From: Alphaproteobacteria bacterium UBA3773
Lineage (GTDB): Bacteria > Pseudomonadota > Alphaproteobacteria > RF32 > CAG-239
Direction of reading: 5' to 3'
Assembly (NCBI GenBank): GCA_002372275.1
Contig: DFFP01000003.1
Span: 17,851-81,850 of the forward strand
DNA: 64,000 nucleotides
The translations under genes and the position numbers were made by a program. The notes below the pieces were generated by a model. The model saw nothing but the letters and a program-made list of their open reading frames with translations. It searched no databases and was not told the DNA's origin. This document shows, in pieces, positions 9,289-48,505 of this stretch (within the stretch, counting starts at the first letter, position 1; the number at the start of each line of letters is the position of its first letter).

Positions 9289-12200
9289 CTACCAACTTGC
9301 AGGGGGTATAATCGTCGCACCGGTTCTTCTTTCTCCATTTACAATCTCAGCCATACGAGGCGTCATCTTATAAACGTAGTAATCTTCTGTATCAGTCGGA
9401 CTGCTGTCTAACGTACAATTGCTATCGCATTCTATGCTAGACTTATTATAAGGAAGAGGACCATTACATTCTGAAACAGGCTTCTTAATACGAAACCAAT
9501 AAGTGGTGCCATAATCAAGCTTGTGTGTAGCAGAAGAATACTTTTGTCCTTCTCCTACACAGTCACCATCCGCAGTACCAAGATCAGCACATTTATTAAC
9601 ATTGCAGTCCCCACTTGGATTTACAAAATTACCTTCCAAAGTAATTTGAAGTTCACCATCACAATTTGCGTTATCGCATACCTGTGCCTCAACACCAACC
9701 ACATTTGTGAATAGGAAGAAGTCATTTTTAACCGGCGTGCAGATATCACCCTCTAGCGTATATCCTTCATCGCAATCTGTAATGTCAGCACCATCACAAA
9801 TACCATGTGCCGGACAATCGTTACATGTGCCGCATGTTCCGTCTGCCACAAAATAGCCTGTTCCTGATCGGCAGTTAGGCCTCCAGCAACCATGTTCAAC
9901 AGATCCTCGATCAGAAGGCAAACACATCGAATTTTCACCAAAATACTTATTAGCTGTATCACATTCGCATTCGATTTCCGTACCTGAACCTACACGAGTA
10001 TTTCTGTCCGCACATCCGGTTTTTTTATAACAAGATGCTGATTCATCAACCCATGAGATTGATGCACTAATTTCTGAAGTTTTATAGTGGCTTCTATGAG
10101 CATCATCTTTGCCTATTTCATTATCTCCTGTACATGGATAAATACATCTCATATTTTTTCCTTTTTCTCCGTTAGTCTGTGTAGCATTTACACAGGACAC
10201 CTTTCGACAATATCCACAACCTGGTATCACAGCCGAAACAGTGGAATTATGATGAGTATAGGCTGCAAGACTATTAGCATGACTAGCGTAAGATTGACCA
10301 CTTATATATGGGGAATCACAGACGTATGCTCCATTATCGAGCGTCAATTCTTCACATTGCAAACTTGTACATCTTCCATCTATGTAATTTTCATTTTTCG
10401 GACAACAATGACCATTAGTTGCGTCATAACCATCATCACATGTGTATTTATAACAGTTTGTTCCTTCAACCGGAGTACAGACATAACCATCTCCAACCGG
10501 ATTATCATGACAAGTTGATGTTGAGTGATAGCTGTTTAAACCTTTATCACTTATATCACCATCTTGAAACTCACATGAGTTCATGTCTGCTGTTGTAATA
10601 TAAAAAGCCATCATATACGAACACTGATCTGAAGAGACATATGAAGTTATATGATACTGATTGGTCAGAATAAATTCATTATATTTATCACCATCATCTG
10701 TAACATTTATATGACCAGCGGGAGAATTTGCACATGCAAAGTCTTTCACTCGATAATATACAGGTCTATTGTTATTATTTGTCTCGGCTTCAATCCTTAT
10801 CGTATCGCCAATATAGGCAAACGCATTGTCTGCCGAAAAATACTGAGTCGAAGCGGAATGTTTACGGCAGTAAGAATTTTTCCCATTCCCCCATATATAT
10901 GCTCCGTTTACAAGAGTAGCACTATCCTTATCCATAGTCTTCTCATGTCCAACGGTTATATCTGTAATTGTAAAATCAGTAATGGTGCTGTCAGTCATAA
11001 CAGAAATACATACCGGTTTTTCAACGCACTTATAATTTTCACTATCCCACATATAATAATGTGTTCCGTTATTATCTGTTGGGTGATAACCAGTATTACA
11101 ACTTATTTTATAGCATTGTCCACTTGTATCCGAGGTTACTACCTCTTCTAAAAGATACATATCTGTTTGATATTCTAAATATCTTGTTGTAGTGCTTAAA
11201 ACATAACTGTCGCCACGCTGCGTACACTGCGCGAGTTCACAATATCCATCCGAATTAGGCAAATATCCTTCTTTGCAATCCAATCTATAGCACGTCAGAT
11301 CATAGTAGCCGCCGCAAGCACCGGTAGACCAACAACGCAGCCGTGATTTTACAGCTGTGCATTTATATCCTGTTGCTGTGCAATGAGGGTCATCTGCTGA
11401 ATTATAGTAGCTGTTAATTCCATCATTCTTTTGATCATTTTCACAAGATCTGCAATCATACATGGTATAACACTGACCATCAGATCCCGTTGCAGTTCCA
11501 TTACTATCTCTGACCTCAAAATAAGCGGGGCAACTTTTCTCATTCTCTAATTTTATTGTCGTTAGATATTGACCGGTTGTCGGTTTTGTATAATAACTTT
11601 TTCCAAATCCTTGGCCTATTTCGTCACAAGTTTTAAGCTCCATAGAAGCTTCAGCTTCAACACTTTCACCTTCCAATCCGAGACTTGCGACATATCTGCC
11701 AGTTATATCCGTTTGTATCGCTTCTTCTTTTTGCTGATTGTTTTTATCATAAGCATGCAAAGCATCTACCGATACGCCAGAAACAAAACTATTTTCCCCT
11801 GAACGATCTGAGCATATTCCTTCTTCGCTACACACTTTGAATGAAGCACTCACCAAAATATCAATTCCGACAGGATTTACATCTTGTGGCCCTTTATAAG
11901 TTGCAGTTCCACTATCTTCCTGTATTTGTCCGGATACAACCCTTGTTTCCGTTCCACTGGCATCAATAGATTGAATAACGCTACCCTTTTCTGCTCTTTG
12001 TGTCGAACCGCTTCCTGTTTCCGTTGTATGGTAAATTTGATATATCAAATCAAATTGACAAGGTGTACCGACATGTGACTCATCACAGCGTCCCAAAGTA
12101 GCATTAACTGTTGCATTTTTGATTTTGAAATTAAATTTCTTTGCTAATTGATAACAAGTCTGCCCTGTTTTCTTCGTGTCTTTAATCTCGGAACATATAA

Positions 12201-13296
12201 CATCATTTTTTGAACAATAACTGTCATTTTGATCTGTATGATAACTTAAAAACTGGTCATCAGCTAAACCGCCGTCTAAATCTTCACATGCTTTTGCGAC
12301 GCAGCGTCCGCATGTGTTATCTTGAACATTTATTGTATCAACAAAATTAAAATAATCTGAATTACATTCATTTCTTGGAACATAAGTTTTCTCACAATTT
12401 TCATCATAAACTTCCGCACATGTCTCGTAAGCTCTACAAGTCCAATACTCGCCAATTTGCGCATCATATATTTTCTGGCATGCTTTTCCTAATGCACAAC
12501 AATTTGCTTCCTCACATGAAGAATATCCTTGTCTGCAGTAACCACATTGATCATTACCAGAAAATTGGTTAATTGGTTGAAAATCACTCTCATCACAATC
12601 TGCTAAATTGGCAAGCGTATCATACCCCTCGGGGCAAGATTCCGGTTCACAGCTGAAAGAAGTTCCAATAATTGATGTAGAATTTTCCTCTCTTATAAAA
12701 GACACAGGAGAAGACATAAAATTCGAATAGACCGAGGCATTTGCTGTTTCTTTGAAACCGGTATTGCATTGCCATTGTGTATAAAAGGGTATACTTTGAC
12801 CGCAAGAGGCAATAGTGATCTGATCGTTAGCTGTAGCATTTTCAGGTAAGACAAAAATAGCTTTTTCGTATTCTTCCTTATACTTTTTCATAACATTAAC
12901 ATAATCAACCTCACATTTACCATAAGTACCTTTTTCGCATTCATCGGAGAGTTTAGCATAATCACCTTTGTTATATTCCGTCCATTTACAAATCTTATCT
13001 TGATTGCAATCGAAGCAGTTTAAACCATGGAAAGAAACGGGGACACACATTTTGCCATTTTCTGGCTTATCAATATCGCTCAACGCACCATCTTCACACT
13101 TATATTGTCTGCACCATATATAGCCCTTGTCGAACGGACATGTTATGTATCCGTCCACACAAGTAATATCCTTCTTAAGTTTATAACCTAAGCTTTCACA
13201 TTCCGGTTTAGGTACGCAATTTCCACCGCACCCTTCATCTGCTGCCATAGCAGCCGGCGCAAACAAAATACAAGCAATTAAGAAAATCTTTTTCAT
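9289..13296 (-). CDS. Giant secreted cysteine-rich protein of 1335 aa with EGF-like C-x-x-GY motifs. Possible adhesin or effector; hypothetical.
   Basis: Signal peptide MKKIFLIACILFAPAAMAADEGCGGNC. Very high Cys, Gly, Tyr, Asp, Asn, Thr and Ser content with recurring C-x(2-4)-C-x(2)-GY-x(n)-C spacing (CYKISCNTGYHPTDNNG..., CYRLDCKEGYLPNSDGYC, CYKYTCDDGYDATNGHCC). The coding region is more AT-rich than the flanking ribosomal genes. Confidence 0.8.
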   Translation of the reverse strand: MKKIFLIACILFAPAAMAADEGCGGNCVPKPECESLGYKLKKDITCVDGYITCPFDKGYIWCRQYKCEDGALSDIDKPENGKMCVPVSFHGLNCFDCNQDKICKWTEYNKGDYAKLSDECEKGTYGKCEVDYVNVMKKYKEEYEKAIFVLPENATANDQITIASCGQSIPFYTQWQCNTGFKETANASVYSNFMSSPVSFIREENSTSIIGTSFSCEPESCPEGYDTLANLADCDESDFQPINQFSGNDQCGYCRQGYSSCEEANCCALGKACQKIYDAQIGEYWTCRAYETCAEVYDENCEKTYVPRNECNSDYFNFVDTINVQDNTCGRCVAKACEDLDGGLADDQFLSYHTDQNDSYCSKNDVICSEIKDTKKTGQTCYQLAKKFNFKIKNATVNATLGRCDESHVGTPCQFDLIYQIYHTTETGSGSTQRAEKGSVIQSIDASGTETRVVSGQIQEDSGTATYKGPQDVNPVGIDILVSASFKVCSEEGICSDRSGENSFVSGVSVDALHAYDKNNQQKEEAIQTDITGRYVASLGLEGESVEAEASMELKTCDEIGQGFGKSYYTKPTTGQYLTTIKLENEKSCPAYFEVRDSNGTATGSDGQCYTMYDCRSCENDQKNDGINSYYNSADDPHCTATGYKCTAVKSRLRCWSTGACGGYYDLTCYRLDCKEGYLPNSDGYCELAQCTQRGDSYVLSTTTRYLEYQTDMYLLEEVVTSDTSGQCYKISCNTGYHPTDNNGTHYYMWDSENYKCVEKPVCISVMTDSTITDFTITDITVGHEKTMDKDSATLVNGAYIWGNGKNSYCRKHSASTQYFSADNAFAYIGDTIRIEAETNNNNRPVYYRVKDFACANSPAGHINVTDDGDKYNEFILTNQYHITSYVSSDQCSYMMAFYITTADMNSCEFQDGDISDKGLNSYHSTSTCHDNPVGDGYVCTPVEGTNCYKYTCDDGYDATNGHCCPKNENYIDGRCTSLQCEELTLDNGAYVCDSPYISGQSYASHANSLAAYTHHNSTVSAVIPGCGYCRKVSCVNATQTNGEKGKNMRCIYPCTGDNEIGKDDAHRSHYKTSEISASISWVDESASCYKKTGCADRNTRVGSGTEIECECDTANKYFGENSMCLPSDRGSVEHGCWRPNCRSGTGYFVADGTCGTCNDCPAHGICDGADITDCDEGYTLEGDICTPVKNDFFLFTNVVGVEAQVCDNANCDGELQITLEGNFVNPSGDCNVNKCADLGTADGDCVGEGQKYSSATHKLDYGTTYWFRIKKPVSECNGPLPYNKSSIECDSNCTLDSSPTDTEDYYVYKMTPRMAEIVNGERRTGATIIPPASW

Positions 13297-29364: not shown

Positions 29365-31248
29365 TTATTTTTTCTTCTTAAATTCAACAACCATCATTGT
29401 AATATCATCAAATTGCGGTGCTTTTTTAATGAATTTTTTAATGCATTGATGCACATATTCCAGCGTTTCGGATACTTTGACTTCTTTTTGGTTCAGCGCT
29501 TCAAGCAAGCGATCTTCCCCGAAAAATTTATTTTCTTTGGCCTGAGCCTCGGTCACACCGTCCGTATATAAAAACAACCTGTCATGTTCACTTAAGGTTA
29601 GCGTTTCCGTCTGAAAATCAAACCCTTCCATCACACCCAAAACAATATTTTTAGCCACATCAACATATTTATATACATTATTTGAGCGCACCAGCGGCGG
29701 ACAGTGTCCGGCGTTCACATATTCGATTATTCCCGTCTTAAAATCCAAAATACCGACAAACGCTGTCACAAACATCAAGGGCGAACTGGTGCTGCAAAGC
29801 GAATTATTTGCTTTTTCAATCGCCTGTTTTAAGGGGTATCCTGCCTGCAACATATTTTTAATTGCCGTTTTAGCCGACATCATATAAAGCGCAGCCGTAA
29901 TACCTTTCCCGCAAACGTCTGCCATCACAAGCCCCGCATGATTTTCATCCACCGGGAAAAAGTCATAAAAATCGCCTCCGACTTCTCGCGCCGGAATCAT
30001 CGAAGCATAAAGTTCAAAATAATCGGTTTTCGGAAAATCTTTCGGTAAAGCCGAATCCTGAATTGTTTTGGCAATTGCGAGTTCTGAAGCCAATTTTTCT
30101 TTTTCGGCCGAAATTTTTGCAAGCTCCGTTAAATGCGCTTTCATATCTGTTTTCATTTTATTAAAAGCGGCAGCCAATTTAGCCAATTCCGAAGGTTCCT
30201 TCAAATAAATTGTCCTGTCCAAATCTCCATCACTGATTTTTTGAGCAATATCGGTTAAGGTATCAATCGGTTGATTGATGTTTTTCTTTAAGACCTTATA
30301 CAAAACCGATACAATAACCATCATACTGACAAGCAAAACGCTGAGCAATACCACTAAATGATGAAACGCATTACTGAAAAGTTCCAAAAATGGAATATTG
30401 ACAATCAAAAACATTCCGTTACTGAGACGCTTGATATAAGGCACATACACTACCCCCTTATAATTAAAGCGAACGCCGTCTTTAAGCTCATCTGAATACC
30501 ACTTCATTTCTTTTAAGGATTGTCCCATCATTAAAGAATTATCAACGCCTTTTTCTGTCGTGGCAATCACGTAGTCATTCGTTTTATCCGCAAACAAAAC
30601 AAAGCTGTTCGGTGTCGGTTTAATGTTTAAGATAGATTTTAAAATCGTATCCAGTTCCCAATCCACCGTTGCCATACCGATTAAATCATCTCCGTTATAT
30701 ATTCCGGCGCCGATGGTCGTCATTAAAATACCGAGTTGCGTACTTTTATAAGGTCTTGTCCACGAAATTCTTTTACCGTTTTTTACGTCGTTTTTAATTT
30801 CTTTATACCAATTTTGGTCAAAATAATTAAAGGTGCCATCCACACAAGAATATAAAAGCTCAATTTTTCTGTTATCATCAAAAAGGGCATGTATGCAGTG
30901 ATTTTTATTTTTTTCATCTGCTTTATAGGGCAAAAAATAAATACCGTTTCCCATCGAATTCGGATAGTTTTTCAAAATACCTGTTACAAAAAACTCCGCA
31001 ATCTGCTGTATATTTCCTTTTTGATGATAAATTTCGCCCATCAAAGCTAAATCCAGTGCATTTTTTTCAAGCGCTGCAATTTCCGTATTAATTTGTTTTT
31101 CAAAAGCCGTAATTGAAGCATTATTGCTTGAAATAATGAGCTCTTTATCATGATAAAAAGCCATTGTTGCCGCACTGATAACCACAGCAGAGAGTGCAAT
31201 GAGCAATGCAAAAGTCACAAAAACAATTTTAGATTTAATGCTTTCCAC
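29365..31248 (-). CDS. Membrane sensor phosphatase: periplasmic Cache-like domain, HAMP, then a PP2C/SpoIIE (RsbU-like) phosphatase domain
   Basis: 627 aa. N-terminal TM, about 280-aa periplasmic region, second TM, HAMP (NINQPIDTLTDIAQKISDGDLDRTIYLKEPSELAKLAAAFNKM), then a SpoIIE domain (PAREVGGDFYDFF, GLVMADVCGKGI, LFLYTDGVTEA). Confidence 0.75.
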   Translation of the reverse strand: MESIKSKIVFVTFALLIALSAVVISAATMAFYHDKELIISSNNASITAFEKQINTEIAALEKNALDLALMGEIYHQKGNIQQIAEFFVTGILKNYPNSMGNGIYFLPYKADEKNKNHCIHALFDDNRKIELLYSCVDGTFNYFDQNWYKEIKNDVKNGKRISWTRPYKSTQLGILMTTIGAGIYNGDDLIGMATVDWELDTILKSILNIKPTPNSFVLFADKTNDYVIATTEKGVDNSLMMGQSLKEMKWYSDELKDGVRFNYKGVVYVPYIKRLSNGMFLIVNIPFLELFSNAFHHLVVLLSVLLVSMMVIVSVLYKVLKKNINQPIDTLTDIAQKISDGDLDRTIYLKEPSELAKLAAAFNKMKTDMKAHLTELAKISAEKEKLASELAIAKTIQDSALPKDFPKTDYFELYASMIPAREVGGDFYDFFPVDENHAGLVMADVCGKGITAALYMMSAKTAIKNMLQAGYPLKQAIEKANNSLCSTSSPLMFVTAFVGILDFKTGIIEYVNAGHCPPLVRSNNVYKYVDVAKNIVLGVMEGFDFQTETLTLSEHDRLFLYTDGVTEAQAKENKFFGEDRLLEALNQKEVKVSETLEYVHQCIKKFIKKAPQFDDITMMVVEFKKKK

Positions 31249-31359
31249 AGCTTTGTCCTTTTGTTTATTATCAACAATGGTTGTAATTTAGCTTATTTAT
31301 TTTTTTAATACAATAAACGTTTTTAAAAAATAAACAAACACCTTTTGTGCTTTTTGTTC

Positions 31360-31446
31360 AAATCTCGATATAGAAATATCGGACCAACAAAAAACCTCCC
31401 GCAAGGGGAGGCTTTTTTGTTGGTGATTTAAGCGAGATTTTTCTTG
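31360..31446. repeat. About 85-bp unit: T-arm-like segment, long terminator-like hairpin, then a degenerate tRNA-Glu 3'-end copy
   Basis: ttcaaatctcgatatagaaatatcggaccaacaaaaaacctccc-gcaa-ggggaggcttttttgttggtgatttaagcgagattttt. Its paralogous unit at 31603-31697 overlaps the true tRNA 3' end. Confidence 0.6.
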
Positions 31447-31602
31447 TCATGATGGTTCGCTTGAAGCTCACATCATGCCTTCGGTCACTCGTTTGTTAAT
31501 TTCGCCGCGGTCGCTTATACGCTTCCTTGCTCAAATAAACAAACTTCGCCTCTTGTGGTAAAAAATGCCGTTTAAGGCATTTTTTATCCTCGAGCTCGTC
31601 CC

Positions 31603-31697
31603 TCGTTCAAATCTCGGCATAGAAATACCGGACCAACAAAAAAAAACACACCGCAAGGGTGTGTTTTTTTTGTTGGTGATTCCAACGAGATTTGAAC
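31603..31697. repeat. Second copy of the about 85-bp hairpin unit, overlapping the tRNA-Glu 3' end. Long near-perfect palindrome.
   Basis: gttcaaatctcggcatagaaataccggaccaacaaaaaaaaacacacc-gcaa-gggtgtgtttttttttgttggtgattccaacgagatttgaac. Both the outer 12-bp arms and the inner arms are complementary. Confidence 0.6.
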
Positions 31698-31748
31698 TCG
31701 TGTTGCAGCCTTGAGAGGGCCGCGTCCTAACCACTAGACGATGGAACC
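31674..31748 (-). tRNA. tRNA-Glu with anticodon CUC as read, CCA encoded
   Basis: The minus strand reads GGTTCCATCGTCTAGTGGTTAGGACGCGGCCCTCTCAAGGCTGCAACACGAGTTCAAATCTCGTTGGAATCACCA. A 7-bp acceptor stem, D-arm, anticodon stem CGGCC/GGCTG with loop CTCTCAA, and T-arm ACGAG/CTCGT with loop TTCAAAT fold correctly. It aligns with bacterial tRNA-Glu. Confidence 0.7.
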
Positions 31749-31799
31749 GAAAAGGGTTTTATTCTTTTACCCTATTTTATTTTAATTTGCAAGATTTTT

Positions 31800-32723
31800 T
31801 TATTCTCCGCGATTTGAATCTGATTTTCTCTTTTTAAGTTTGGCTAATTTTTCGCTGACCAAACCCGTCTCACGCCCTGTTCTTGCCAGTCTGTCATACA
31901 TTCGTTCAATTTCTTTTTCCAAATAAGCGCGTTCAATTTCGCTTGCTAAATTTTGCTTCATTCCCTCCGTTCCAAAGCAGCGAATATTTTCTACCTCATC
32001 AAGCAAGTCTTCAACATAGCGATGCGTTTCTTCTTTCTTTTTGATAAAATAAGGCATTTCATAAGCTATTTGTCTGGCGTTGGCATAAGCTTCCGTCCCG
32101 TTTTCACAGTTATTATATTTCAGTTTCAAAAGCCTGAGTGCTGTTTCCGCCTCTTCGCTGTTATCCACCACAATAAAGGGCATACGTGTTGCAAATCCTG
32201 TTGCCGAAAGCTCTTTAAGCGTTTCCAAAATATGATAAAAGAAATTATCGATGTTATAAATAATAAACGGCTTGTTTTTCAAAAAACCGTCCTGCATAGC
32301 CACACAGTCATACGCAAGCTCATCTAACGTTCCGACCCCGCCCGGTGCAAACACGACCAAGTCAGCTTCCAAAAGCTTTTTCTTACGATTTTCAAGTGAA
32401 TCTTCAATCACAACTTCGCTGATTAAATTCAACAGTTCATCTTTTTCATAAAGGTCATAATATTCTTTTGTTGTGACCCCGATAATCGGAGCTGCTCCTT
32501 TTTCACCTTTGTCATTATTTTTAAGGTATTCATCAATCACACCGCGTGCCACGGCGCCCATCACACCCGAATTTGAAAATCCGTAATCCAAACGGAATCC
32601 CATTTTTGCAATAATTTTACCGAGTTTATAACTTTCTTCCACATAAATCGGATCAAAACCGTCCTGATGTCCGCCGGAGACGCAAACTCTCAAATTTCTT
32701 TTCACAACGCAGTCTTCTGTCAT
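31800..32723 (-). CDS. LOG-family (TIGR00730) Rossmann-fold protein, a putative cytokinin-riboside-5'-monophosphate phosphoribohydrolase-like enzyme with a C-terminal coiled-coil extension
   Basis: The motif FAPGGVGTLDELAY matches the LOG PGGxGTxxE signature, and VCVSGG lies near the N-terminus. Start chosen at the internal Met (MTEDCVVKRNLRVCVSGG) to avoid overlapping ctrA. Confidence 0.6.
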   Translation of the reverse strand: MTEDCVVKRNLRVCVSGGHQDGFDPIYVEESYKLGKIIAKMGFRLDYGFSNSGVMGAVARGVIDEYLKNNDKGEKGAAPIIGVTTKEYYDLYEKDELLNLISEVVIEDSLENRKKKLLEADLVVFAPGGVGTLDELAYDCVAMQDGFLKNKPFIIYNIDNFFYHILETLKELSATGFATRMPFIVVDNSEEAETALRLLKLKYNNCENGTEAYANARQIAYEMPYFIKKKEETHRYVEDLLDEVENIRCFGTEGMKQNLASEIERAYLEKEIERMYDRLARTGRETGLVSEKLAKLKKRKSDSNRGE

Positions 32724-32767
32724 TTTAAAACCTTTTTTAAAAAGATAAAATGATTGCTTAAAAAATT

Positions 32768-33463
32768 CTAGCCCTGATTTTCCGCCTCGTCCGGATCGCG
32801 CAAAACATAACCCCTGCCCCAAACGGTTTCAATATAGTTTTTACCGCCTGATGCTTTTTCAAGTTTCTTTCTGAGTTTACAAATAAACACATCAATAATT
32901 TTGAGTTCCGGCTCATCCATACCGCCATACAAATGGTTCAAGAATTGATCTTTATTTAAGGTCGAACCTTTGCGAAGCGACAAAAGCTCCATAATACCAT
33001 ATTCTTTACCTGTTAAATGAAGCGGTTTACCGCCGACAGTGACCGTTTGCGTGTCTAAATTAACCACGACATCACCTGTCTGAATGGTCGAGGTGGCATG
33101 ATCTTGTGAGCGACGAACAATGGCATGAATACGTGCCAAGAGTTCCGATCTGTCAAACGGTTTTGTTAAATAATCATCTGCCCCGAATCCTAAGCCTTTC
33201 ACTTTCTTATCCGGCCCCGTTAAACCCGACAAAATAAGTACCGGTGTTTTAACCTTTGCATTTCTTAAACTTCTTAAAACTTCATACCCGTTCATATCAG
33301 GCAGCATCAAATCCAAAATGATGATATCATAATCATAAACTTTGCCGATCTCTAAACCATCTTCACCCAAATCGGTTGAATAAACAACCATTCCCTCGTG
33401 TTTAAGCATCATTTCAATGCTTTGTGAAACGGCGTGATCATCTTCAATTAACAAAACTCTCAT
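32768..33463 (-). CDS. ctrA: Cell-cycle response regulator CtrA (OmpR family)
   Basis: [81 protein letters not shown]...[13 protein letters not shown] is near-colinear with alphaproteobacterial CtrA. Confidence 0.85.
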
Positions 33464-33523
33464 TTCTTTCCCTTTCATTTAAAATGACTTCGATATTTTG
33501 CATGATAATGCACAAATTTTTAT

Positions 33524-33565
33524 TTGTTAACAATTATTAATAAGCTTGTTAATAATTATTAACAA
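33524..33565. promoter_or_regulatory. Imperfect 19-bp-arm palindrome with TTAA-N6-TTAA half-sites in the divergent ctrA/sodB promoter region. Candidate CtrA-box-like operator.
   Basis: ttgttaacaattattaata-AGCTT-gttaataattattaacaa, with TTAA half-sites at CtrA-like spacing. Confidence 0.3.
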
Positions 33566-33633
33566 ATCCCCTTGAAAGTGCTTAAAACAGGTCTATATCA
33601 GCTTTTATAAATTTTATGATAAAGGAAAAAAAT

Positions 33634-34203
33634 ATGTTTACACTACCTAAACTTTCTTATAGCTATACCGATTTAGAGCCTTACATGTCCGAGCAAACGC
33701 TTTTATTTCACCACACAAAACACCACCAATCATACATCGATAACTTAAATAAACTCATACAAAACACCGAATTTGAAGATTTAAGTTTAGAAGAGATTAT
33801 CCGGCAAACGGCAGATGACATTAAATATGAATCTATTTTCAACAATGCCGCGCAAACATATAACCATAATTTCTTTTTTGCGCATCTTTCCCCAAACGGT
33901 GCTCAAACGCCGCCGGCCGAGCTTTTCAAAGGCATTGAAAAAACTTTTGGCTCTTATGAAATTTTCAAAAGTGAATTTAAAAATGCAGCGCTCTCTCAGT
34001 TTGGCAGCGGCTGGGCGTGGCTTGCCGAAGACGGAAAAGAACATCTCAAAATTTTAAAAACATCAAATGCCGATACACCGATTGCACATCACTTAAAACC
34101 GCTTATGTGTATAGACGTTTGGGAGCACGCTTACTACCTTGATTTTCAAAACAGGCGCGCCGATTTTATCGACACCTTTTTAGATCACCTCATCAAGTGG
34201 TAA
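33634..34203 (+). CDS. sodB: Fe/Mn superoxide dismutase
   Basis: MFTLPKLSYSYTDLEPYMSEQTLLFHHTKHHQSYIDNLN, with a CIDVWEHAYYLD metal-ligand motif. Start set at the Met that matches the SOD N-terminus. Confidence 0.85.
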   Translation: MFTLPKLSYSYTDLEPYMSEQTLLFHHTKHHQSYIDNLNKLIQNTEFEDLSLEEIIRQTADDIKYESIFNNAAQTYNHNFFFAHLSPNGAQTPPAELFKGIEKTFGSYEIFKSEFKNAALSQFGSGWAWLAEDGKEHLKILKTSNADTPIAHHLKPLMCIDVWEHAYYLDFQNRRADFIDTFLDHLIKW

Positions 34204-34236
34204 AGTTCCGCTACATGACGCACTCGAAATTATCAT

Positions 34237-34268
34237 AAAAAAACCACCGAATTTCATCAGTGGTTTTT
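34237..34268. terminator. Hairpin followed by a T-run downstream of sodB
   Basis: aaaaaaccac-cgaatttcatca-gtggtttttt. Confidence 0.45.
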
Positions 34269-34293
34269 TAAGCATTTTTATTTTATTAAAAAC

Positions 34294-34785
34294 TTATTGC
34301 ACAAAAGTACAATGTTTTTCGATTTCTTTTTCAATTTTGATGGCATCATCTTTTTTCATCGCATAAAGCGGAACGGAAAAAGCGCCGTAACGAGAGGCAC
34401 GACTGAACTTTTGCATTGGTCTTAAGTTATAATTGGCATTTTTTTTAAGCTTAAATCTAATAAACGAACGTCCGAAAGTGCCGCTTTTCATTTTTTCGGC
34501 AAAATCAATATCTTTCCATTTCAAGAGCTCATTTTTATCAATGATAATTCCGTCAGATGTAATTTTCGCAAGTCTTTGAGGTTTCAAAAAAACATACCAC
34601 GCACTGATAGCGGCGAGCAGACCGATCACTTTAACCGAATTGACGAACACATTTTCAATAAACGTTGTTGCAAAAAAGTGCAATGCAAACCAAAGAACAA
34701 CCAGGCTCAAAACGGCCCAAACACATAATTTTCTGCGATCATAATAAAACTCTTTCATAACAAATCTCCCAAAAGCATAATCCAT
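34294..34785 (-). CDS. Hypothetical membrane protein
   Basis: 163 aa with two predicted TM helices (VWAVLSLVVLWFALHFFATTFI and VIGLLAAISAWYVFL). No recognisable motif. Confidence 0.4.
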   Translation of the reverse strand: MDYAFGRFVMKEFYYDRRKLCVWAVLSLVVLWFALHFFATTFIENVFVNSVKVIGLLAAISAWYVFLKPQRLAKITSDGIIIDKNELLKWKDIDFAEKMKSGTFGRSFIRFKLKKNANYNLRPMQKFSRASRYGAFSVPLYAMKKDDAIKIEKEIEKHCTFVQ

Positions 34786-34902
34786 ATCAAAACACTATGA
34801 AATTTTTTTAATAATATCAAGTAAAAAAAAATAGTCTTGCATTTTAGATATAATCGCGCTAAAACTGGGCACATAATTTTTTAACAGAACGGAACAAAAA
34901 AA

Positions 34903-36672
34903 ATGAATGAATATCGCACACATACTTGTGGAGAATTAAGAAAGGAAGACGCTGGCAAAACCGTATTGCTTTCCGGCTGGCTTCATCGCAAACGCAATTT
35001 AGGAAATCTTTGTTTTGTTGACCTTCGAGATCATTACGGCATTACACAATGCGTTTTTGATTCCTCTTCCGATTTATTTAATCAAATTCAAGATTTGCGC
35101 GTTGAAAGCGTTATCGGCGTTGAGGGGGAAGTTATCCTTCGCGAAAGCGTCAATAAAAATATGCCGACAGGCGATATTGAAATTAAAGTGCAAAAATTAA
35201 AGGTTTATTCCAAAGCCGACCAACTGCCCATTCAAGTTTCATTTGTCGATGATTCGCCTGAAGATTTGCGCCTCAAATATCGTTTTTTGGATCTGCGAAG
35301 AGAAAAACTTCACCAAAACATGCTGCTTCGCTCCAAAGTGATTGCCTCCATGCGAAAACTCATGACCGAACAGGGTTTTGTTGAATATCAAACCCCGATT
35401 TTAACGGCTTCTTCCCCTGAGGGTGCGCGTGACTTTTTGGTTCCGTCACGTATCAATCCCGGCAAATTTTATGCCCTGCCCCAAGCACCGCAACAGTTTA
35501 AACAACTTTTGATGGTCTCGGGCTTTGATAAATACTTCCAAATCGCACCGTGTTTTCGTGATGAAGACCCGCGTGCCGACCGCAGTCCGGGCGAATTTTA
35601 TCAACTTGATGTTGAAATGTCTTTTGCAACCCAAGAAGATGTTTTTGCCGTTTTAGAAAAAACCTTAAGCGGTGTATTTGCCGAGTTTGCAAACGGCCGA
35701 AAAGTTGATATGCCCCCATATAGAAGAATTCCTTATTTAGAATCCATGCTCAAATACGGCTCAGATAAACCGGATCTTCGAAATCCGCTTGTAATCATGG
35801 ATGCAACCGCCTTTTTCGGCCACTCCGGATTTGGTGTTTATGATGAAAAAGTTGCAAACGGCGATGAAGTTCGTGCGATTGTTTTGAAATCAACGGCCGA
35901 CAAACCCCGCTCATTTTTTGACAAGCTTGATGCTTATGCCAAAGAAGAAGACATGGGCGGCATGGCCTATATCGCACTTTCTTCAAGCGGTGCCAAAGGA
36001 ATCGCCAAGGTTTTCAGCGAAGAAAAATTAAATGAAGCCAAAAAGTTTTTTGGGCTTTGTGACGGCGACGCTGTGTTGTTGATGGCAGGCAAAAAAGACA
36101 AACTCAACAAATTTGCGGGATTTGTCCGCACCAAGGTAGGTCAAGAGCTTAACCTCATCGAAAAAGATGCTTTCCGTTTTTGCTGGATTATTGATTTCCC
36201 GATGTATGAAAAGAATGAAGAAACAGGCGCTGTTGAATTTTCACACAACCCGTTTTCCATGCCTCAAGGCGGTATGGATGCTCTTTTAAATAAGAATCCG
36301 CTTGATATTTTAGCTTATCAATATGACATTGTCTGCAACGGAATCGAGCTTTCCTCCGGTGCTGTCCGAAATCACGAACCCGAAATTATGTACAAAGCCT
36401 TTGAAATTGCCGGATACGGACACGATGTCGTTGACAATAAATTCGGCGGTATGATCAGCGCTTTCCACTATGGCGCCCCACCGCACGCCGGATGTGCCCC
36501 GGGGGTTGATCGTATCGTGATGTTACTTGCTGATGAACCAAACATCAGAGAAGTTATTTTGTTCCCCTTAAACGGTAAGGCGCAAGATTTACTCATGCAA
36601 GCGCCGAACACGGTTACCGAAGAACAACTCAAAGACCTTCATATTAAAATTGATTTAAAAGACGAAAAATAA
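34903..36672 (+). CDS. aspS: Aspartyl-tRNA synthetase
   Basis: 589 aa. N-terminal OB fold ([39 protein letters not shown]) and class II motifs ([14 protein letters not shown] and [23 protein letters not shown]). Confidence 0.9.
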
Positions 36673-36691
36673 GAAGGTATATTTTTTAACA

Positions 36692-36727
36692 GCACAAGGC
36701 ATAATCATCAGTGCCTTGTGCTTTTTT
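36692..36727. terminator. Bidirectional intrinsic terminator between convergent aspS and the oxidoreductase gene
   Basis: Perfect 10-bp stem gcacaaggca/tgccttgtgc with a 10-nt loop, followed by tttttt. Confidence 0.6.
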
Positions 36728-37637
36728 ATAAAAATACAGCGTTTTGAATTTGACGCGTTAAAATTTCATTCTTTTGATCAAACCTAAAAGACTTCCAATA
36801 ATTTTCATATTGATCATGCATACGATGAATTTTCGGCTTATTTTCATAAATACACCTGCCATCAAAATAAATTGTTTGTTTTTGATGATCAATTAAAATT
36901 CGTCCTTTTTCTGTTTCGATGACCGAAATTTTTTCAACGCCGCTTGTCATCCAATCGACCAATAAATCAAGTTCAACCCCATCTTTATTTTCAAAAGTTT
37001 TATGTGCATATCGCACCAAGCCCGAGACCGGATCCGTATCTTGTATTTCTCGTGTTTTTTTCAAATTTTCGATGTCAACCAAAAGCGCCATATCCGAAAA
37101 TAAATTTGATGCCACATCAACCCAGGCATCACCCAAACTTCTTTTTTCTTCTGCTACAATATGTTTTTCGCAATAAGCATATTGTTCATGTGCTGTAAAA
37201 GACCACCTTTTTATTTTTCCGAATTCCGATATATGGTCTTTCAAATACTTCATTTCATCGCCATACCTAAAATGATAAACAACATCAAAACGCACATGAT
37301 TTTGACGCGCTGTCTGATAAAGAATTTCTGTTTGTTCAAGGCTGCAACAAAGCGGTTTTTCAATTAAAGCATTAAATCCTTGTTCCAAAACATCTTTTAA
37401 GATTTTAAAATGATTTTGAACTCCGACACAAATATGCACGACATCAGGCTTTTGCTCAAACAACATTTTTTTATAATCCGTGTAGAAAGGAAGATTCGGA
37501 AATACTTGCGTGTGTGCCACACAATTTTCATTCACATCAGCCAAAGCGATTAAGCTGAGATTTTGAGAATTACATAATCCCGTTTTATAAAACTTTGTAA
37601 TATACCCGCCGCCGATCAACACAATTTTTTGCATCAT
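36726..37637 (-). CDS. Gfo/Idh/MocA-family NAD(P)-dependent oxidoreductase
   Basis: The N-terminal Rossmann motif MQKIVLIGGGYITKFY and overall length match the family. Start trimmed to MMQK. Confidence 0.55.
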   Translation of the reverse strand: MMQKIVLIGGGYITKFYKTGLCNSQNLSLIALADVNENCVAHTQVFPNLPFYTDYKKMLFEQKPDVVHICVGVQNHFKILKDVLEQGFNALIEKPLCCSLEQTEILYQTARQNHVRFDVVYHFRYGDEMKYLKDHISEFGKIKRWSFTAHEQYAYCEKHIVAEEKRSLGDAWVDVASNLFSDMALLVDIENLKKTREIQDTDPVSGLVRYAHKTFENKDGVELDLLVDWMTSGVEKISVIETEKGRILIDHQKQTIYFDGRCIYENKPKIHRMHDQYENYWKSFRFDQKNEILTRQIQNAVFL

Positions 37638-37727
37638 ACGTTTCCTTTCATAAATCATCTTTAAAAATATCCTTGAAAATTTTTAAAAAAATGATAAAAT
37701 GTTTCTGTTTTTTTTAGGAGAATAAAT

Positions 37728-38363
37728 ATGACATCAAAATCAGCACATGATGAAGCAAATATAATAAGAAGCGGCTTATATGAAAACCAGATTGAGCCGA
37801 CAGACGCCTTAAGATTATCTGCTCGCATTGAAGGTGAAGAAACCGCCAAGCGTGATATTGTCTTTCATGCTTTGCAAAATAATTCTTCTCTTGAAATGCT
37901 TCACATGTCATTAGATATTGCCGCTACAATGAAATATCCGTCTCCTAAATTTCAAGTTTTATCTGAAATTTTAAAAAAATGCCCGAATAATTTTGAGCAA
38001 TCTGTGATTATTGATTACAAAGCCATAAAACAATCTGAGACCGTTGACGGGGCCTCTGCCGAAAAATCCGAAATCATTGAAACGATTTGCGGACGTGAAA
38101 ATAGGATGCCCATGTCCTTGTTTAATGAGATGGTTCATCTGTCTTCCACGCTTTACGATTCGGATTGTGTCCCCAATGCTTTTGCCGCACTTTCAAAACG
38201 TCCGGAATGTCAAATGAGTCACATTCAACATTTCACAGACATCGTCAATGGTCATGTTACAGATGAAAACAGAAGATCAAATTTATTAAAACAAATCACA
38301 AGCGCACCGATCTGCGTTCAAGCCCGTCAAAAGCATTCTGTTAAACGTTCAAATACGCTTTAA
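37728..38363 (+). CDS. Hypothetical protein
   Basis: 211-aa ORF with a plausible RBS (taggagaataaatATG). No recognisable motif. Confidence 0.4.
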   Translation: MTSKSAHDEANIIRSGLYENQIEPTDALRLSARIEGEETAKRDIVFHALQNNSSLEMLHMSLDIAATMKYPSPKFQVLSEILKKCPNNFEQSVIIDYKAIKQSETVDGASAEKSEIIETICGRENRMPMSLFNEMVHLSSTLYDSDCVPNAFAALSKRPECQMSHIQHFTDIVNGHVTDENRRSNLLKQITSAPICVQARQKHSVKRSNTL

Positions 38364-40681
38364 TCCGGTGCATCAATTTTAAGGGTCAAAGTCAAAATAT
38401 TTTTACCCTTTATATACCTGTAAGAAGCTTTATCAGACATTTGTTTAACCAAAAAGATGCCTAAGCCGCCTGTTGCTCTGTCTTCCAGCGGAGCCGAAAT
38501 GTCCGGATCTTTTCTTAAGAGCGGATTAAACTTTAAGCCGCTGTCTGTCAGTTTTAAAACGATTAATCCGCCTTTTTTGCGCAAACTGACATCCACATAT
38601 CCCGTACAACCGACATAAGCATAGCTGGCCACATTTGTAAATGACTCTTCTGCCACCAGATTAAGTCTCTGAATTGTTTTAAGCGGCAAAGAAAATGCCG
38701 TTGCTCCTTCATTTAACCACTTTGAAAAGAGACTATAATTTTCCGTGGTTGCCAAAAGCGTCACATGTCTTTCATCTGTTTTATTCTGCATTCCGTTATA
38801 TTTAAATGCGAGCATTGTCAAATCATCACTTTGGGCCGTATTTTGCACAAAATCCTCCACATTTTTCTTCACATCTTCAAGCAAGCGCCTTGATCCGCTT
38901 AATTTCAAATTATTTAAGCAATCGAGCAATCTTTCCTCCCCATAAAATTCTCTTTTTTCATTTAAGGCCTCTGTCAAACCGTCGGTATATAAAAAGAGCG
39001 TATCTCCTTTATTGAGCAAAGTTTCCGTCACATGATATTCAAAATCGTCCAGTGCACCCAAAGGCATATTAGAATCTGTTTTGAGGTATTCAAACTTACC
39101 ACCATTGCGACAAATAAGCGGCGGATTATGCCCGCAATTTATAAAAGCGATTTTTCCGGTTTCCAAATCCACAATACCGATAAAAGCCGTCACAAAAAAT
39201 CCGAATTGATTATTTTCCTGAATTTTATTATTGATTTTTGAAATCAAGCGACCATGACCTTCTTTATCATTGAACATATTTTTAATTGTTGTTTTAACGG
39301 TCATCATAAACAAAGCGGCCGGCACACCTTTGCCCGAAACATCAGCTACCAAAAACACAAATTGTTTAAGCGAAATAAAGAAAAAGTCATAAAAATCGCC
39401 TCCGATTTCTCTGGCCGGGTTCATCAAAGCAAAGATATTAAATTCCTTCACTTCCGGATAGAAAAATGACGGCAAATATGAGCTTTGAATTTTACTTGCC
39501 ACATCAAGTTCCGTTGCGATACGTTCTTTTTCTTTTGTGAAAGTATTGACGTGCTCAATATATTCTTTTAAGTTTTCACCCATCTGATTAAATGTTTTGG
39601 CAAGTTGTGCAAACTCTGCCGGTTTTTGCAAATGATTTTTAGCATCAATTTTTCCCTGTCCGAAGAGTTCTGCCGTTCGGGTCAATGACTTAATGGGTCT
39701 GTTCACATTTTTCTCCAAGATCAAATAAATTGCCAAAACCATCAAACAGATAGCCGGAAACAAAAAGAGAAACATCCAGAGCCTTATTCTTTTAATGGGA
39801 GCAAATAATTCTTCTTCGGGAATATTCATCACAAAGATCATCCCGTTTCCAAGTTCTTTCACATTTGTTAAAAACTGCTTGCCATTGTGTTTTAAAAATG
39901 AAATACCTTTCAAATCATCACGATACCACGAAACTTCTTTAAGAGATTGACCGAAAAGTTCATTTTGCTTCAAATTAGGATCCGTTGACCCGATCACAAA
40001 ATCGTTATTTTTGTCTGCCACCAGCGAAAAACTGTGCGGTGTCGGTTTCATACTCATGAGTGTTGCCACAATATCGCCGATTTTCCAGTCAATTGTTGAA
40101 AGCCCGACAAGTTTATCATTAAAGTATATACCGGCACCTACCGTTGTCATCAATGTTTCGGATCCCTGATTTTCATAGTATGGCGACGACCATTCAACTT
40201 TAATATTTTTTTCAAGGGAAGGTATAATTTCACGATACCATTTTTGCGTTAAATAATCATATTCTTCGCTTGCAAATTGATCATCAAGCAAAACCTTTCC
40301 CTCATCATTGTGATAAGCATAATAGCATGTTCTTTTTTGATTATCATAGACCGAGTATGCTTTAAACCACACACCGCCCCCCAAAAGCGCCGGAGATTTT
40401 TCAAAAAAATCTTGCACAACAGAGGCAATCATCGGTGCCGATCTGTCTGTTTTGTAGTGAAGTTCGCCGATCAGTGCCAAGTCGACAGCCTTATTTTCCA
40501 TCACATTAATGTCTTTTTCGATTTTGCGTGCAAAGGTCGAAATTTCAAAATCGCTTGCCGTAATTATTAATTTTTTCGCATTTTTATAATTAAGGTAACT
40601 GAAAAAAGAAACAATTCCGCATAAAAATATCAAAATAAAAACCAAGAGAACAACAATTTTCGATTTAACGGTTTTAAGCAT
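38360..40681 (-). CDS. Membrane sensor: Cache-like periplasmic domain, HAMP, SpoIIE/PP2C phosphatase, then a C-terminal RsbW-like GHKL (HATPase_c) serine-kinase/anti-sigma domain
   Basis: 773 aa, paralogous to 29365-31248 over the first roughly 600 residues (HAMP NVNRPIKSLTRTAELFGQGKIDAKNHLQKPAEFAQLAKTFNQM; SpoIIE PAREIGGDFYDFF, LVADVSGKGV, LFLYTDGLTEA). The extra C-terminal region (LVAEESFTNVASYAYVGCTGYVDVSL...TDSGLKFNPL...GGLGIFLVKQMSD) matches the HATPase_c_2 family of anti-sigma factors. Confidence 0.7.
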   Translation of the reverse strand: MLKTVKSKIVVLLVFILIFLCGIVSFFSYLNYKNAKKLIITASDFEISTFARKIEKDINVMENKAVDLALIGELHYKTDRSAPMIASVVQDFFEKSPALLGGGVWFKAYSVYDNQKRTCYYAYHNDEGKVLLDDQFASEEYDYLTQKWYREIIPSLEKNIKVEWSSPYYENQGSETLMTTVGAGIYFNDKLVGLSTIDWKIGDIVATLMSMKPTPHSFSLVADKNNDFVIGSTDPNLKQNELFGQSLKEVSWYRDDLKGISFLKHNGKQFLTNVKELGNGMIFVMNIPEEELFAPIKRIRLWMFLFLFPAICLMVLAIYLILEKNVNRPIKSLTRTAELFGQGKIDAKNHLQKPAEFAQLAKTFNQMGENLKEYIEHVNTFTKEKERIATELDVASKIQSSYLPSFFYPEVKEFNIFALMNPAREIGGDFYDFFFISLKQFVFLVADVSGKGVPAALFMMTVKTTIKNMFNDKEGHGRLISKINNKIQENNQFGFFVTAFIGIVDLETGKIAFINCGHNPPLICRNGGKFEYLKTDSNMPLGALDDFEYHVTETLLNKGDTLFLYTDGLTEALNEKREFYGEERLLDCLNNLKLSGSRRLLEDVKKNVEDFVQNTAQSDDLTMLAFKYNGMQNKTDERHVTLLATTENYSLFSKWLNEGATAFSLPLKTIQRLNLVAEESFTNVASYAYVGCTGYVDVSLRKKGGLIVLKLTDSGLKFNPLLRKDPDISAPLEDRATGGLGIFLVKQMSDKASYRYIKGKNILTLTLKIDAPD

Positions 40682-40798: not shown

Positions 40799-41332
40799 TT
40801 AATGCAATCCCTTTTTACTTTTCACTGTGTACCAATCGCACAGCGGAATCATTCTCACACCTTCCGGTCTGACCAAAAGGTACAAATTAAGATCGTCATC
40901 GAACTTGTTGGAATTCGCCTGTTCTTCGCACAAAGCTTCAACCAGAACAACACCATAAGCCATTTCGCAGACAACCGTGTCATCAGATACGCGCCTGATC
41001 ACATCTGCCCTTTGGCCTTTAGGGTCCAAAACGGCTCTGTTAAGCAGGACACAATTTGTCTCCGGATCATACGCATTGTCGGAATCGTCGCTTGAATCAG
41101 AAGTTAATGTCACCAATACTTGCGTATCCGGCTCAAGTACGGTCTTCAAGAAACATAATGATCCGTCATCCAATCGAATGAGCGAACCAAAATTCGTCTT
41201 TGCAACAACGCGGCCGTCCAATAAATCTTCAGAACTTCGTCTGCCGACCAAAAAATAAGGAACAAATGTCCCCGAAATAACGTAGATTGCCAATAAAATG
41301 GCAAAGAACACCACAATAGATACAATTAACAT
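40799..41332 (-). CDS. Hypothetical membrane-anchored protein
   Basis: 177 aa with an N-terminal TM (MLIVSIVVFFAILLAIYVISGTFV). No other recognisable motif. Confidence 0.4.
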   Translation of the reverse strand: MLIVSIVVFFAILLAIYVISGTFVPYFLVGRRSSEDLLDGRVVAKTNFGSLIRLDDGSLCFLKTVLEPDTQVLVTLTSDSSDDSDNAYDPETNCVLLNRAVLDPKGQRADVIRRVSDDTVVCEMAYGVVLVEALCEEQANSNKFDDDLNLYLLVRPEGVRMIPLCDWYTVKSKKGLH

Positions 41333-47890: not shown

Positions 47891-48505
47891 ATGAAAACAA
47901 TAGCCTACATCAGGGTCAGTTCATCAAAACAAACACTTGAGCACCAACGTTTTGAAATTGAAAATTTTACAAGCCGTGAAGGTATAAAAATAGATGAATG
48001 GGTCGAAGAAAAAATATCTTCCCGAAAATCACTTGACAAACGACAACTCGGAAAATTATTAAATGACTTAAAAGAAAACGACAGACTGATCACATGTGAA
48101 ATATCGCGTTTAGGACGTTCTCTTTTAGAGGTCATGAAAATTTTAGAAACATGTTTAAACAAGAATTGTCAAGTATGGACCTTGAAAGAAAATTACCGTT
48201 TAGGCAACGATATTCAATCAAAAGTTTTAGCCTTTGCATTCGGTTTGGCCGCCGAAATCGAGCGCAAACTCATTTCCGAACGCACAAAATCATCTCTTGC
48301 AAATATTAAGGCATCAGGCAAAAAGCTTGGAAGACCCTTATCTTCCCAATCTCAAAAATTAAAACTATCCAAAAACACAAAAAAAGTACAACATTTAATT
48401 GCCCAAGGTTTACCAAAATCTAAAATTGCAAAAATATTGGGGGTTCATCGTTCAACCGTCCGACATTTTATAGATCGGCTTAAACTCATATCCTTAATTT
48501 TGTAA
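47891..48505 (+). CDS. Serine recombinase of the resolvase/invertase family
   Basis: N-terminal catalytic domain AYIRVSSSKQTLEHQ with the SRLGRSLLEV motif. C-terminal HTH SKIAKILGVHRSTVRHF. 204 aa. Confidence 0.8.
   Translation: MKTIAYIRVSSSKQTLEHQRFEIENFTSREGIKIDEWVEEKISSRKSLDKRQLGKLLNDLKENDRLITCEISRLGRSLLEVMKILETCLNKNCQVWTLKENYRLGNDIQSKVLAFAFGLAAEIERKLISERTKSSLANIKASGKKLGRPLSSQSQKLKLSKNTKKVQHLIAQGLPKSKIAKILGVHRSTVRHFIDRLKLISLIL

Follow-up and report, generated by a model that had tools for sequence, protein, structure and literature searches.

Can one membrane protein hold both opposing enzymes of a partner switch, and does it mean anything that such a protein is encoded close to the gene for the response regulator CtrA? 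These questions are raised by a 64,000-nucleotide stretch of Alphaproteobacteria bacterium UBA3773 (contig DFFP01000003.1, positions 17,851 to 81,850), whose source is an uncultured alphaproteobacterium, probably from the gut; we call the whole stretch the window. An earlier note, made from the sequence alone, had described two related sensor genes on either side of ctrA and had proposed that one of them is fused to an RsbW-like kinase. We refer to the 627-amino-acid (aa) product of 29365-31248 (minus strand) as p627 and to the 773-aa product of 38360-40681 (minus strand) as p773. p773 does carry a phosphatase and an RsbW-type kinase fused in one membrane sensor; both domains are present and their catalytic motifs are intact.

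Two paralogous sensors, one with a fused kinase

The two genes proved to be minus-strand open reading frames (ORFs) with the ends that had been assigned to them.

29365..31248, minus strand: p627; first transmembrane helix, double-Cache domain, second transmembrane helix, HAMP domain and SpoIIE/PP2C phosphatase domain, without a kinase domain (ORF, Pfam and motif positions)
38360..40681, minus strand: p773; first transmembrane helix, periplasmic double-Cache domain, second transmembrane helix, HAMP domain, SpoIIE/PP2C phosphatase domain and RsbW-type GHKL serine kinase domain (ORF, Pfam, AlphaFold model and PDB fold match)

Pfam matches and hydrophobic segments agree on the architecture that the earlier note had proposed for both genes, in which a Cache domain between two transmembrane helices is followed by HAMP and PP2C/SpoIIE. 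p627 matches MCP-like_PDC_1 (6.8e-16), HAMP (3.8e-10) and SpoIIE (2e-49); p773 matches MCP-like_PDC_1 (8.3e-19), HAMP (7e-08), SpoIIE (2.6e-49) and HATPase_c_2 (1.5e-18). Hydrophobic segments lie on both sides of a sensor domain of about 265 residues, at about residues 3-33 and 287-322 of p627 and about residues 1-33 and 298-326 of p773. The two proteins align end to end over 629 residues with 37% identity (E 9e-151), and the paralogy that had been suggested for them holds.

The AlphaFold model of p773 has a mean predicted local distance difference test score of 83.7 and is weak only in the linker between HAMP and PP2C, residues 377-406. The top match of this model among solved folds is 3ke6, the RsbU and RsbW domains of Rv1364c (E 6e-20, 367 columns), and 3ke6 is also the best match of p773 in a single-sequence search of the PDB (9.9e-13).

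The phosphatase and kinase domains keep their catalytic motifs

The two enzymatic domains of p773 lie at the following positions.

38798..39364, minus strand: SpoIIE/PP2C domain of p773; residues 440-628 by Pfam (PF07228, 2.6e-49), the fold starting at about residue 396
38384..38752, minus strand: C-terminal RsbW/SpoIIAB-type GHKL serine kinase (anti-sigma-like) domain of p773; residues 644-766 (PF13581)

Against a cutoff of 25 bits, the SpoIIE family scores 168.6 bits in p627 and 168.2 bits in p773. A family profile made from 15 sequences places the motifs GGDFYD, ADVSGKG, YTDG and SDDLT on SGDSY, SDGMGNG, SDG and DDMT of Bacillus subtilis SpoIIE, for which 5mqh and 3t91 served as reference chains. 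At the GD, DxxG, DG and DD motifs of this alignment, the predicted metal-binding residues are D429, D447, D567 and D619/D620 in p773 and D426, D444, D563 and D614/D615 in p627; we take the metal-binding positions of SpoIIE itself to be numbered D610, D628, D746 and D795. The aspartates are invariant across an alignment of 70 homologues. The earlier note had stated that its claim would fall if they were missing on alignment, and they are present in both SpoIIE domains. By profile and by metal-site residues, p773 and p627 are predicted to belong to the SpoIIE/PPM-type PP2C serine phosphatases.

The same note had named a C-terminal extension without a HATPase_c_2 match as its other point of failure. 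In p773 HATPase_c_2 scores 67.5 bits (cutoff 27.4), and a profile built from the family of this C-terminal domain matches RsbW (6m36, 7e-08) and SpoIIAB (1tid/1th8, about 4e-04) with the motifs aligned, so the extra domain is of the anti-sigma serine-kinase type, as proposed. Its motifs are an N-box, E678-E679-x3-N683, a G1 box, D713-x-G715, and a G2 box, G738-G-L-G741, all of them invariant or nearly so across the family. A PDB search with the single sequence of this domain gave noise only, and the family profile was needed to obtain the RsbW and SpoIIAB matches. The domain scores 17.2 and 16.5 bits against TIGR01924 and PRK04069, the NCBIfam equivalogs for the RsbW of sigma-B, whose cutoffs are 155 and 145. 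Since these scores are far below the cutoffs, we assign the kinase domain to the RsbW domain family and do not regard it as an RsbW orthologue.

Purifying selection acts on all domains of p773, the kinase included, despite the lack of an adjacent gene for a STAS-domain partner. Compared with the 81% identical orthologue in the nearest relative (locus L006), the kinase domain has a ratio of nonsynonymous to synonymous substitution rates (dN/dS) of about 0.06, similar to that of the other domains; synonymous divergence is near saturation in this comparison, so the ratios are rough.

A predicted extracellular sensor precedes a HAMP domain

On the input side of p773 there are two further domains.

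39791..40591, minus strand: periplasmic ligand-binding domain of p773, double-PDC/dCache_1 type; about residues 31-297 (PF22673, 8.3e-19)
39563..39712, minus strand: HAMP domain of p773; residues 324-373 (PF00672, 7e-08)

PF22673 is above threshold in both proteins, while dCache_1 (PF02743) stays below its cutoff of 45 bits, with 34 bits in p627 and 25 bits in p773. A family profile of the p773 sensor matches 3lic (3.6e-10), and the sensor in the AlphaFold model resembles the dCache ligand-binding domains of PctD, PacA, Mlp24, McpX and a uracil receptor, with target-normalised template modelling scores (TM-scores) of 0.6-0.78. Judged from profile and model, p773 is predicted to have a double-PDC extracellular sensor of the dCache_1 type between its two transmembrane helices. 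As to the amino-acid (AA) and amine (AM) ligand motifs, whose residues are defined in PctA and PctD, Q146-K-W148-Y149 of the sensor may stand at the place of R126-x-W128-Y129 in PctA. The profile of the p773 HAMP domain matches the HAMP structures of NarQ, CpxA and Af1503.

The STAS gene is adjacent in most fused relatives and absent from the window

Whole-window Pfam annotation, phmmer, tblastn and a purpose-built STAS hidden Markov model (HMM) all failed to find a STAS domain, a sigma factor or a second HATPase_c_2 domain in the 64-kb window. This agrees with the earlier note, which had seen no STAS anti-anti-sigma gene and no sigma-B-like gene there. The STAS queries were the SpoIIAA and RsbV seeds of B. 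subtilis, the STAS proteins of four relatives and the HMM, which was built from 56 sequences taken from ORFs of related loci. The HMM found a single weak match, at 5725-6051 on the minus strand (E 0.018), which we rejected as a lipoprotein with a lipobox. A complete partner-switching module, with phosphatase, kinase and STAS protein encoded together, is not present within the window.

In relatives, a STAS gene of about 100 aa with a conserved phospho-serine commonly adjoins the fused gene. A scan of species-representative genomes gave at least 596 stretches related to p773, and we surveyed the 80 best, taking each locus with 6 kb on either side and scoring fusion per ORF. PP2C and kinase are fused in a single ORF in 47 of the 80 loci. 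Among these 47, a small STAS ORF lies at most 200 bp away in 25 and elsewhere in the locus in 8; the remaining 14, some of them cut by contig ends, have no STAS in the locus. Adjacency of STAS is not obligatory, because these 14 fused relatives do without it.

Four loci illustrate the arrangements. In the closest of the reference genomes listed by the scan (L009), whose fused protein is 46% identical to p773 over its full length, the STAS gene lies 8 bp upstream of the fused gene. In L008, where the fused protein is 57% identical to p773, a convergent STAS gene of 101 aa lies directly downstream. In L094, an alphaproteobacterial metagenome-assembled genome (MAG), the STAS gene overlaps the start of a 777-aa gene of the same architecture and 31% identity to p773. 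Finally, in L089 an orthologue of p627 (70% identity) faces a divergent pair of genes for a STAS protein and a stand-alone RsbW-like protein, the latter 47% identical to the C-terminal domain of p773. The STAS proteins of all four loci retain the serine that aligns with S58 of SpoIIAA and S56 of RsbV.

A separate observation concerns ORFs of about 390-400 aa with a STAS-like match beside the fused sensor, which we saw in seven loci (L014, L015, L021, L023, L030, L045 and L068). Judged from record titles they come mostly from MAGs of Clostridia/Bacillota, and in several cases they are additional to a small STAS gene.

The two immediate neighbours of p773 in the window occupy the places at which relatives have their STAS genes.

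40799..41332, minus strand: 177-aa single-pass membrane protein with one N-terminal transmembrane helix and no Pfam match; 117 bp upstream of p773 and on the same strand
37728-38363, plus strand: 211-aa ORF without a Pfam match, converging on p773 and overlapping its stop by 4 bp

The 177-aa protein sits where L009 and L094 have STAS, and L006 and L007 have a 42% identical counterpart in the corresponding position; the protein may be an accessory to the sensor or a mere neighbour. The 211-aa ORF has no homologue in any fetched locus. We considered whether this ORF and a 143-aa ORF of L006, both at the position of the L008 STAS gene, are degenerate STAS genes, and rejected the idea: neither has a Pfam match or a STAS motif, and the two are not homologous to each other.

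Relation to characterized systems

The closest structural parallel is Rv1364c of Mycobacterium tuberculosis (PAS-PP2C-RsbW kinase-STAS; 3ke6), in which, as in p773, a single chain has a SpoIIE-type PP2C domain and, directly after it, a GHKL domain of the RsbW type. Rv1364c differs in being cytoplasmic, with a PAS input and its own STAS substrate domain at the C terminus, whereas p773 lacks a STAS domain and has a transmembrane input made of double-Cache and HAMP domains. The same order of input, PP2C and kinase/anti-sigma domain is found in HsbR of Pseudomonas aeruginosa and CrsR of Shewanella oneidensis, in which the input is a REC domain and for which the STAS proteins HsbA and CrsA are substrates of kinase and phosphatase activity alike (PMC6482189). 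Unlike p773, these two have an adjacent STAS gene and a kinase domain that binds RpoS; p773 has no Response_reg match in Pfam and no adjacent STAS gene, so it is not a member of this group. SypE is another dual kinase and phosphatase, acting on SypA (PMC8256260).

The outputs listed for Cache sensors include SpoIIE (PMC4822843, PMC10589655), and serine/threonine phosphatases are named as one of the four major families of amine-binding dCache receptors (PMC10589655). RsbU of Chlamydia trachomatis and the dCache-SpoIIE receptors in general, which are cited in PMC8256260 and PMC10589655, are membrane proteins that couple a periplasmic sensor to a PP2C domain acting on STAS (RsbV) proteins, and p627 is essentially alike. 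Unlike p773 they have no fused kinase, and the chlamydial RsbW is a separate protein; the chlamydial ligands, intermediates of the tricarboxylic acid cycle, are not to be assumed for p627 or p773.

SiaA of P. aeruginosa, a membrane HAMP-PP2C protein, is the top NCBIfam match for both p627 and p773, and its PP2C structure, 6k4e, matches the p773 model with a target-normalised TM-score of 0.80. In that system SiaB is the kinase on the same substrate. The SiaA equivalog NF038263 has a cutoff of 700 bits, and our two proteins reach only 60.6 and 76.2 bits. SiaA also differs from p773 in having no Cache domain and no fused kinase, and nothing in the window corresponds to its substrate SiaC or to the cyclase SiaD.

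An alphaproteobacterial case is RbaV/RbaW/RbaY of Rhodobacter capsulatus, an Rsb-type switch which, like the window, comes with no identified sigma factor and which has a genetic link to CtrA (PMC3999984). It is unlike the window in that RbaY is a REC-PP2C protein, RbaW stands alone, and none of the three genes adjoins ctrA.

A proposed one-polypeptide controller and the alternatives to it

We think it likely that p773 is an inner-membrane partner-switch controller made of one polypeptide, a ligand-gated bifunctional kinase and phosphatase for a STAS protein, and that p627 is a phosphatase-only sister. For the substrate, direction of regulation, ligand and output of p773 we infer the following. 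p773 would probably be dimeric, and a small molecule would bind its periplasmic double-Cache domain. The second transmembrane helix and HAMP would relay the signal to the PP2C domain of SpoIIE type, whose activity would change. The RsbW-type GHKL domain and the PP2C domain would share one substrate, phosphorylated by the former and dephosphorylated by the latter. This substrate would most likely be a STAS-domain protein of about 100 aa, modified at its conserved serine. By setting the phosphorylation state of the STAS protein, the sensor would control a downstream partner, and the kinase domain may also sequester that partner directly, as in HsbR and CrsR. p627 could then act as a second extracellular input, by dephosphorylation only, into the same or a parallel STAS/RsbW pair.

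In a straightforward reading, the STAS gene would be unlinked to both sensors and lie elsewhere in this genome, much as R. capsulatus has rbaY apart from rbaVW. The absence of a linked STAS gene is the sole unusual point of this locus. The missing neighbor makes this lineage a small natural experiment on how much linkage the components of a partner switch need.

Several findings weigh against the controller model. Neither the 64-kb window nor the surroundings of the 81% identical gene of L006, up to 10 kb away, contain a STAS, sigma factor or SiaC-like gene. A search with the STAS protein of L089 gave no match from the window's own contig, and the loci of 14 of the 47 fused relatives have no STAS either, with the contig ends as noted. 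Moreover, our literature search found no experimental characterization of any member with the exact Cache-HAMP-PP2C-kinase architecture.

A possible alternative, though one we hold to be distinctly less probable than the controller model, is that the two sensors serve separate pathways that do not converge, p627 working with an unlinked RsbW/STAS pair of the kind seen in L089 and p773 with a STAS protein of its own. The two proteins fall into separate clades and are ancient paralogues by their identity; the p627 orthologue of L089 has its own STAS and RsbW pair, just as fused relatives have their own STAS. The p773 type and the p627 type were also never neighbors outside this genus in the loci inspected, which include L008, L089, L094 and the other loci of p627 orthologues. 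On the other hand, STAS proteins found beside the two types are alike: the L089 STAS query retrieved P0303, a STAS protein beside a fused sensor, at 60% identity. Cross-talk between the two pathways is plausible because the stand-alone RsbW-like protein of L089 and the p773 kinase domain share the 47% identity given above, and this too counts against a strict separation.

More doubtful is the idea that the STAS partner was lost in this lineage, so that the GHKL domain of p773 now sequesters or phosphorylates a different target and the PP2C domain reverses this. It would account for the lack of STAS in the window and in the locus of the 81% relative, when STAS is adjacent in the 57% relative and in most other fused homologues. 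A non-homologous membrane protein of 177 aa, kept in L006, stands at the usual STAS position, and the kinase domains of HsbR and CrsR are known to bind RpoS directly (PMC6482189). Yet non-adjacent or missing STAS genes are a regular finding among the fused relatives (8 and 14 of 47), and R. capsulatus keeps rbaY away from rbaVW. Related alphaproteobacterial MAGs do encode matching STAS proteins. Furthermore, the kinase and phosphatase motifs of p773 are unchanged, and the kinase domain has a dN/dS no higher than that of the other domains.

The position next to ctrA

The earlier note had placed ctrA between the two sensors, about 1.5 kb from one and 5 kb from the other. We confirmed both the distances, 1.5 kb to p627 and 4.9 kb to p773, and the identity of the gene, whose ORF reaches 400 bits with NF045991, the NCBIfam equivalog for CtrA (cutoff 350). 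The features between ctrA and p627 are as follows.

32768..33478, minus strand: ctrA, OmpR-type response regulator; called gene of 231 aa, likely start 33463; between the two sensors
31800-32723, minus strand: LOG/TIGR00730-type ("lysine decarboxylase-like", SLOG) gene with a long C-terminal extension, directly downstream of ctrA
31674..31748, minus strand: tRNA-Glu(CTC), between the LOG-like gene and p627 (ARAGORN; Rfam tRNA, 61 bits)

L006, the nearest relative, shares the gene order p773, aspS, sodB, ctrA, LOG-like gene, tRNA-Glu(CTC), p627, with one insertion: just after its tRNA gene comes a gene for 742 aa without a Pfam match, and next an ORF 86% identical to the N terminus of p627.

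Could the sensors be functionally coupled to CtrA, either as members of its regulon, as with RbaV/W/Y, or by feeding extracellular signals into cell-cycle control, so that the bracketing is meaningful? We keep this as a low-probability alternative because R. capsulatus offers a precedent: in a ctrA mutant, transcripts of its rsbV, rsbW and rsbY homologues are reduced more than 2-fold (PMC3999984). The order conserved in L006 would fit as well. But orthologues of p627 with 64-91% identity (L010, L089, L090, L091 and L093) have no ctrA in the 6-10 kb of flanking sequence retrieved, nor is there one in the retrieved surroundings of the fused relatives L008, L009 and L094. A search for CtrA boxes, TTAA-N7-TTAA or TTAACCAT, found no site upstream of p627 or p773, and the boxes are not enriched in the window (3 and 4 occurrences, respectively, versus 6.3 and 3.8 expected). 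In addition, the genes between the sensors include unrelated housekeeping genes (aspS, sodB and a GFO oxidoreductase). Taken together, coupling to CtrA seems very unlikely to us.

The functional link to ctrA is unsupported, because neither gene has CtrA boxes upstream and the arrangement is common only to the nearest relative. A meaning of the bracketing is likewise not supported, as more distant orthologues lack the arrangement; most likely, the placement is a lineage-specific synteny without mechanistic meaning. Least credible of all is the combined proposal that STAS was lost in the genus and that the fused sensor and its paralogue around ctrA became a STAS-independent, ligand-gated pair of serine kinase and phosphatase on a new target, which, if true, could link an extracellular gut metabolite to CtrA-dependent control of the cell cycle or development.

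The LOG-like gene is paired with ctrA in L006 and also in L007 (84% identity). In the region 31356-31748 the tRNA gene is followed by a direct duplication of about 250 bp, each copy consisting of a segment like the 3′ end of a tRNA and a G+C-rich terminator hairpin (repeats D1 and D2). Rfam found the tRNA alone above threshold in this duplication. Together with the 742-aa insertion of L006, the duplication looks like a scar of integration or excision at the tRNA gene.

The design is common, and the two genes have different histories

How unusual is a sensor such as p773? Of the candidates scored in a homologue search, 6001 proteins were significant. Each of the 120 homologues listed spans 91% or more of the query and has a PDC/Cache sensor, SpoIIE and HATPase_c_2, mostly with HAMP, at 41-96% identity. 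Those that are named are called "SpoIIE family protein phosphatase" and come from MAGs labeled "bacterium" and from one Gastranaerophilales MAG, whose protein is 42% identical. The 80 best loci of our survey span many clades, including families of Clostridia, Spirochaetes, Elusimicrobia, Synergistetes, Coriobacteriia and others, as judged from record titles. The Cache-HAMP-PP2C-kinase architecture is widespread and already annotated automatically. The finding is correct but ordinary, because many public genomes encode this design and systems like it have been studied. The significance implied for the architecture is not supported, since it is so widespread and fused PP2C-kinase regulators have been characterized before (PMC6482189; PDB 3ke6).

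Close relatives of p773 are few, with identities of 96, 81, 69 and 57% and then a fall to 47%; the nearest ones beyond the genus, at 46-47%, bear no label but "bacterium". The p627 family has more than 100 cluster representatives at 64-91% identity, all of about 627 aa and without a kinase, and the named ones are from "Alphaproteobacteria bacterium". When the region common to both types is placed in a neighbor-joining tree, the fused proteins group in a single clade, with the p627 family as its sister; the tree is distance-based with a midpoint root and is therefore indicative only. From these comparisons, p627 and p773 appear to be old paralogues whose histories differ.

In practical terms the value is modest: an uncultured, low-G+C lineage that bears CtrA, and whose orthologues go by the name Alphaproteobacteria, carries Rsb-type partner-switch sensors with extracellular Cache inputs. 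Finding the ligand and the output for one member with the Cache-HAMP-PP2C-kinase architecture would annotate hundreds of genes of gut bacteria.

Other features of the window

The G+C content of the window is about 33-47%. A second, unrelated serine/threonine signaling cluster lies at 24160-27033 on the plus strand. According to the precomputed Pfam annotation its genes, which overlap at their ends, encode a 228-aa VWA protein, a PP2C_2 phosphatase of 252 aa and a Pkinase of the Hanks type with 482-487 aa. It is followed by genes for a bPH_2 protein (27038-27796, minus strand) and an LRR_5 protein (28039-28980, minus strand). Between about 44000 and 56000 the G+C fraction falls from about 0.38-0.43 to 0.33-0.35; this stretch has a resolvase gene (47891-48505), genes of the NUDIX and HAD types and numerous ORFs that match no Pfam family, and it may be an acquired island. 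Three large ORFs on the minus strand have no precomputed Pfam match: 9289-13296 (1335 aa), 55657-58596 (979 aa) and 53913-55481 (522 aa). The 1335-aa gene comes directly after a cluster of ribosomal protein genes.

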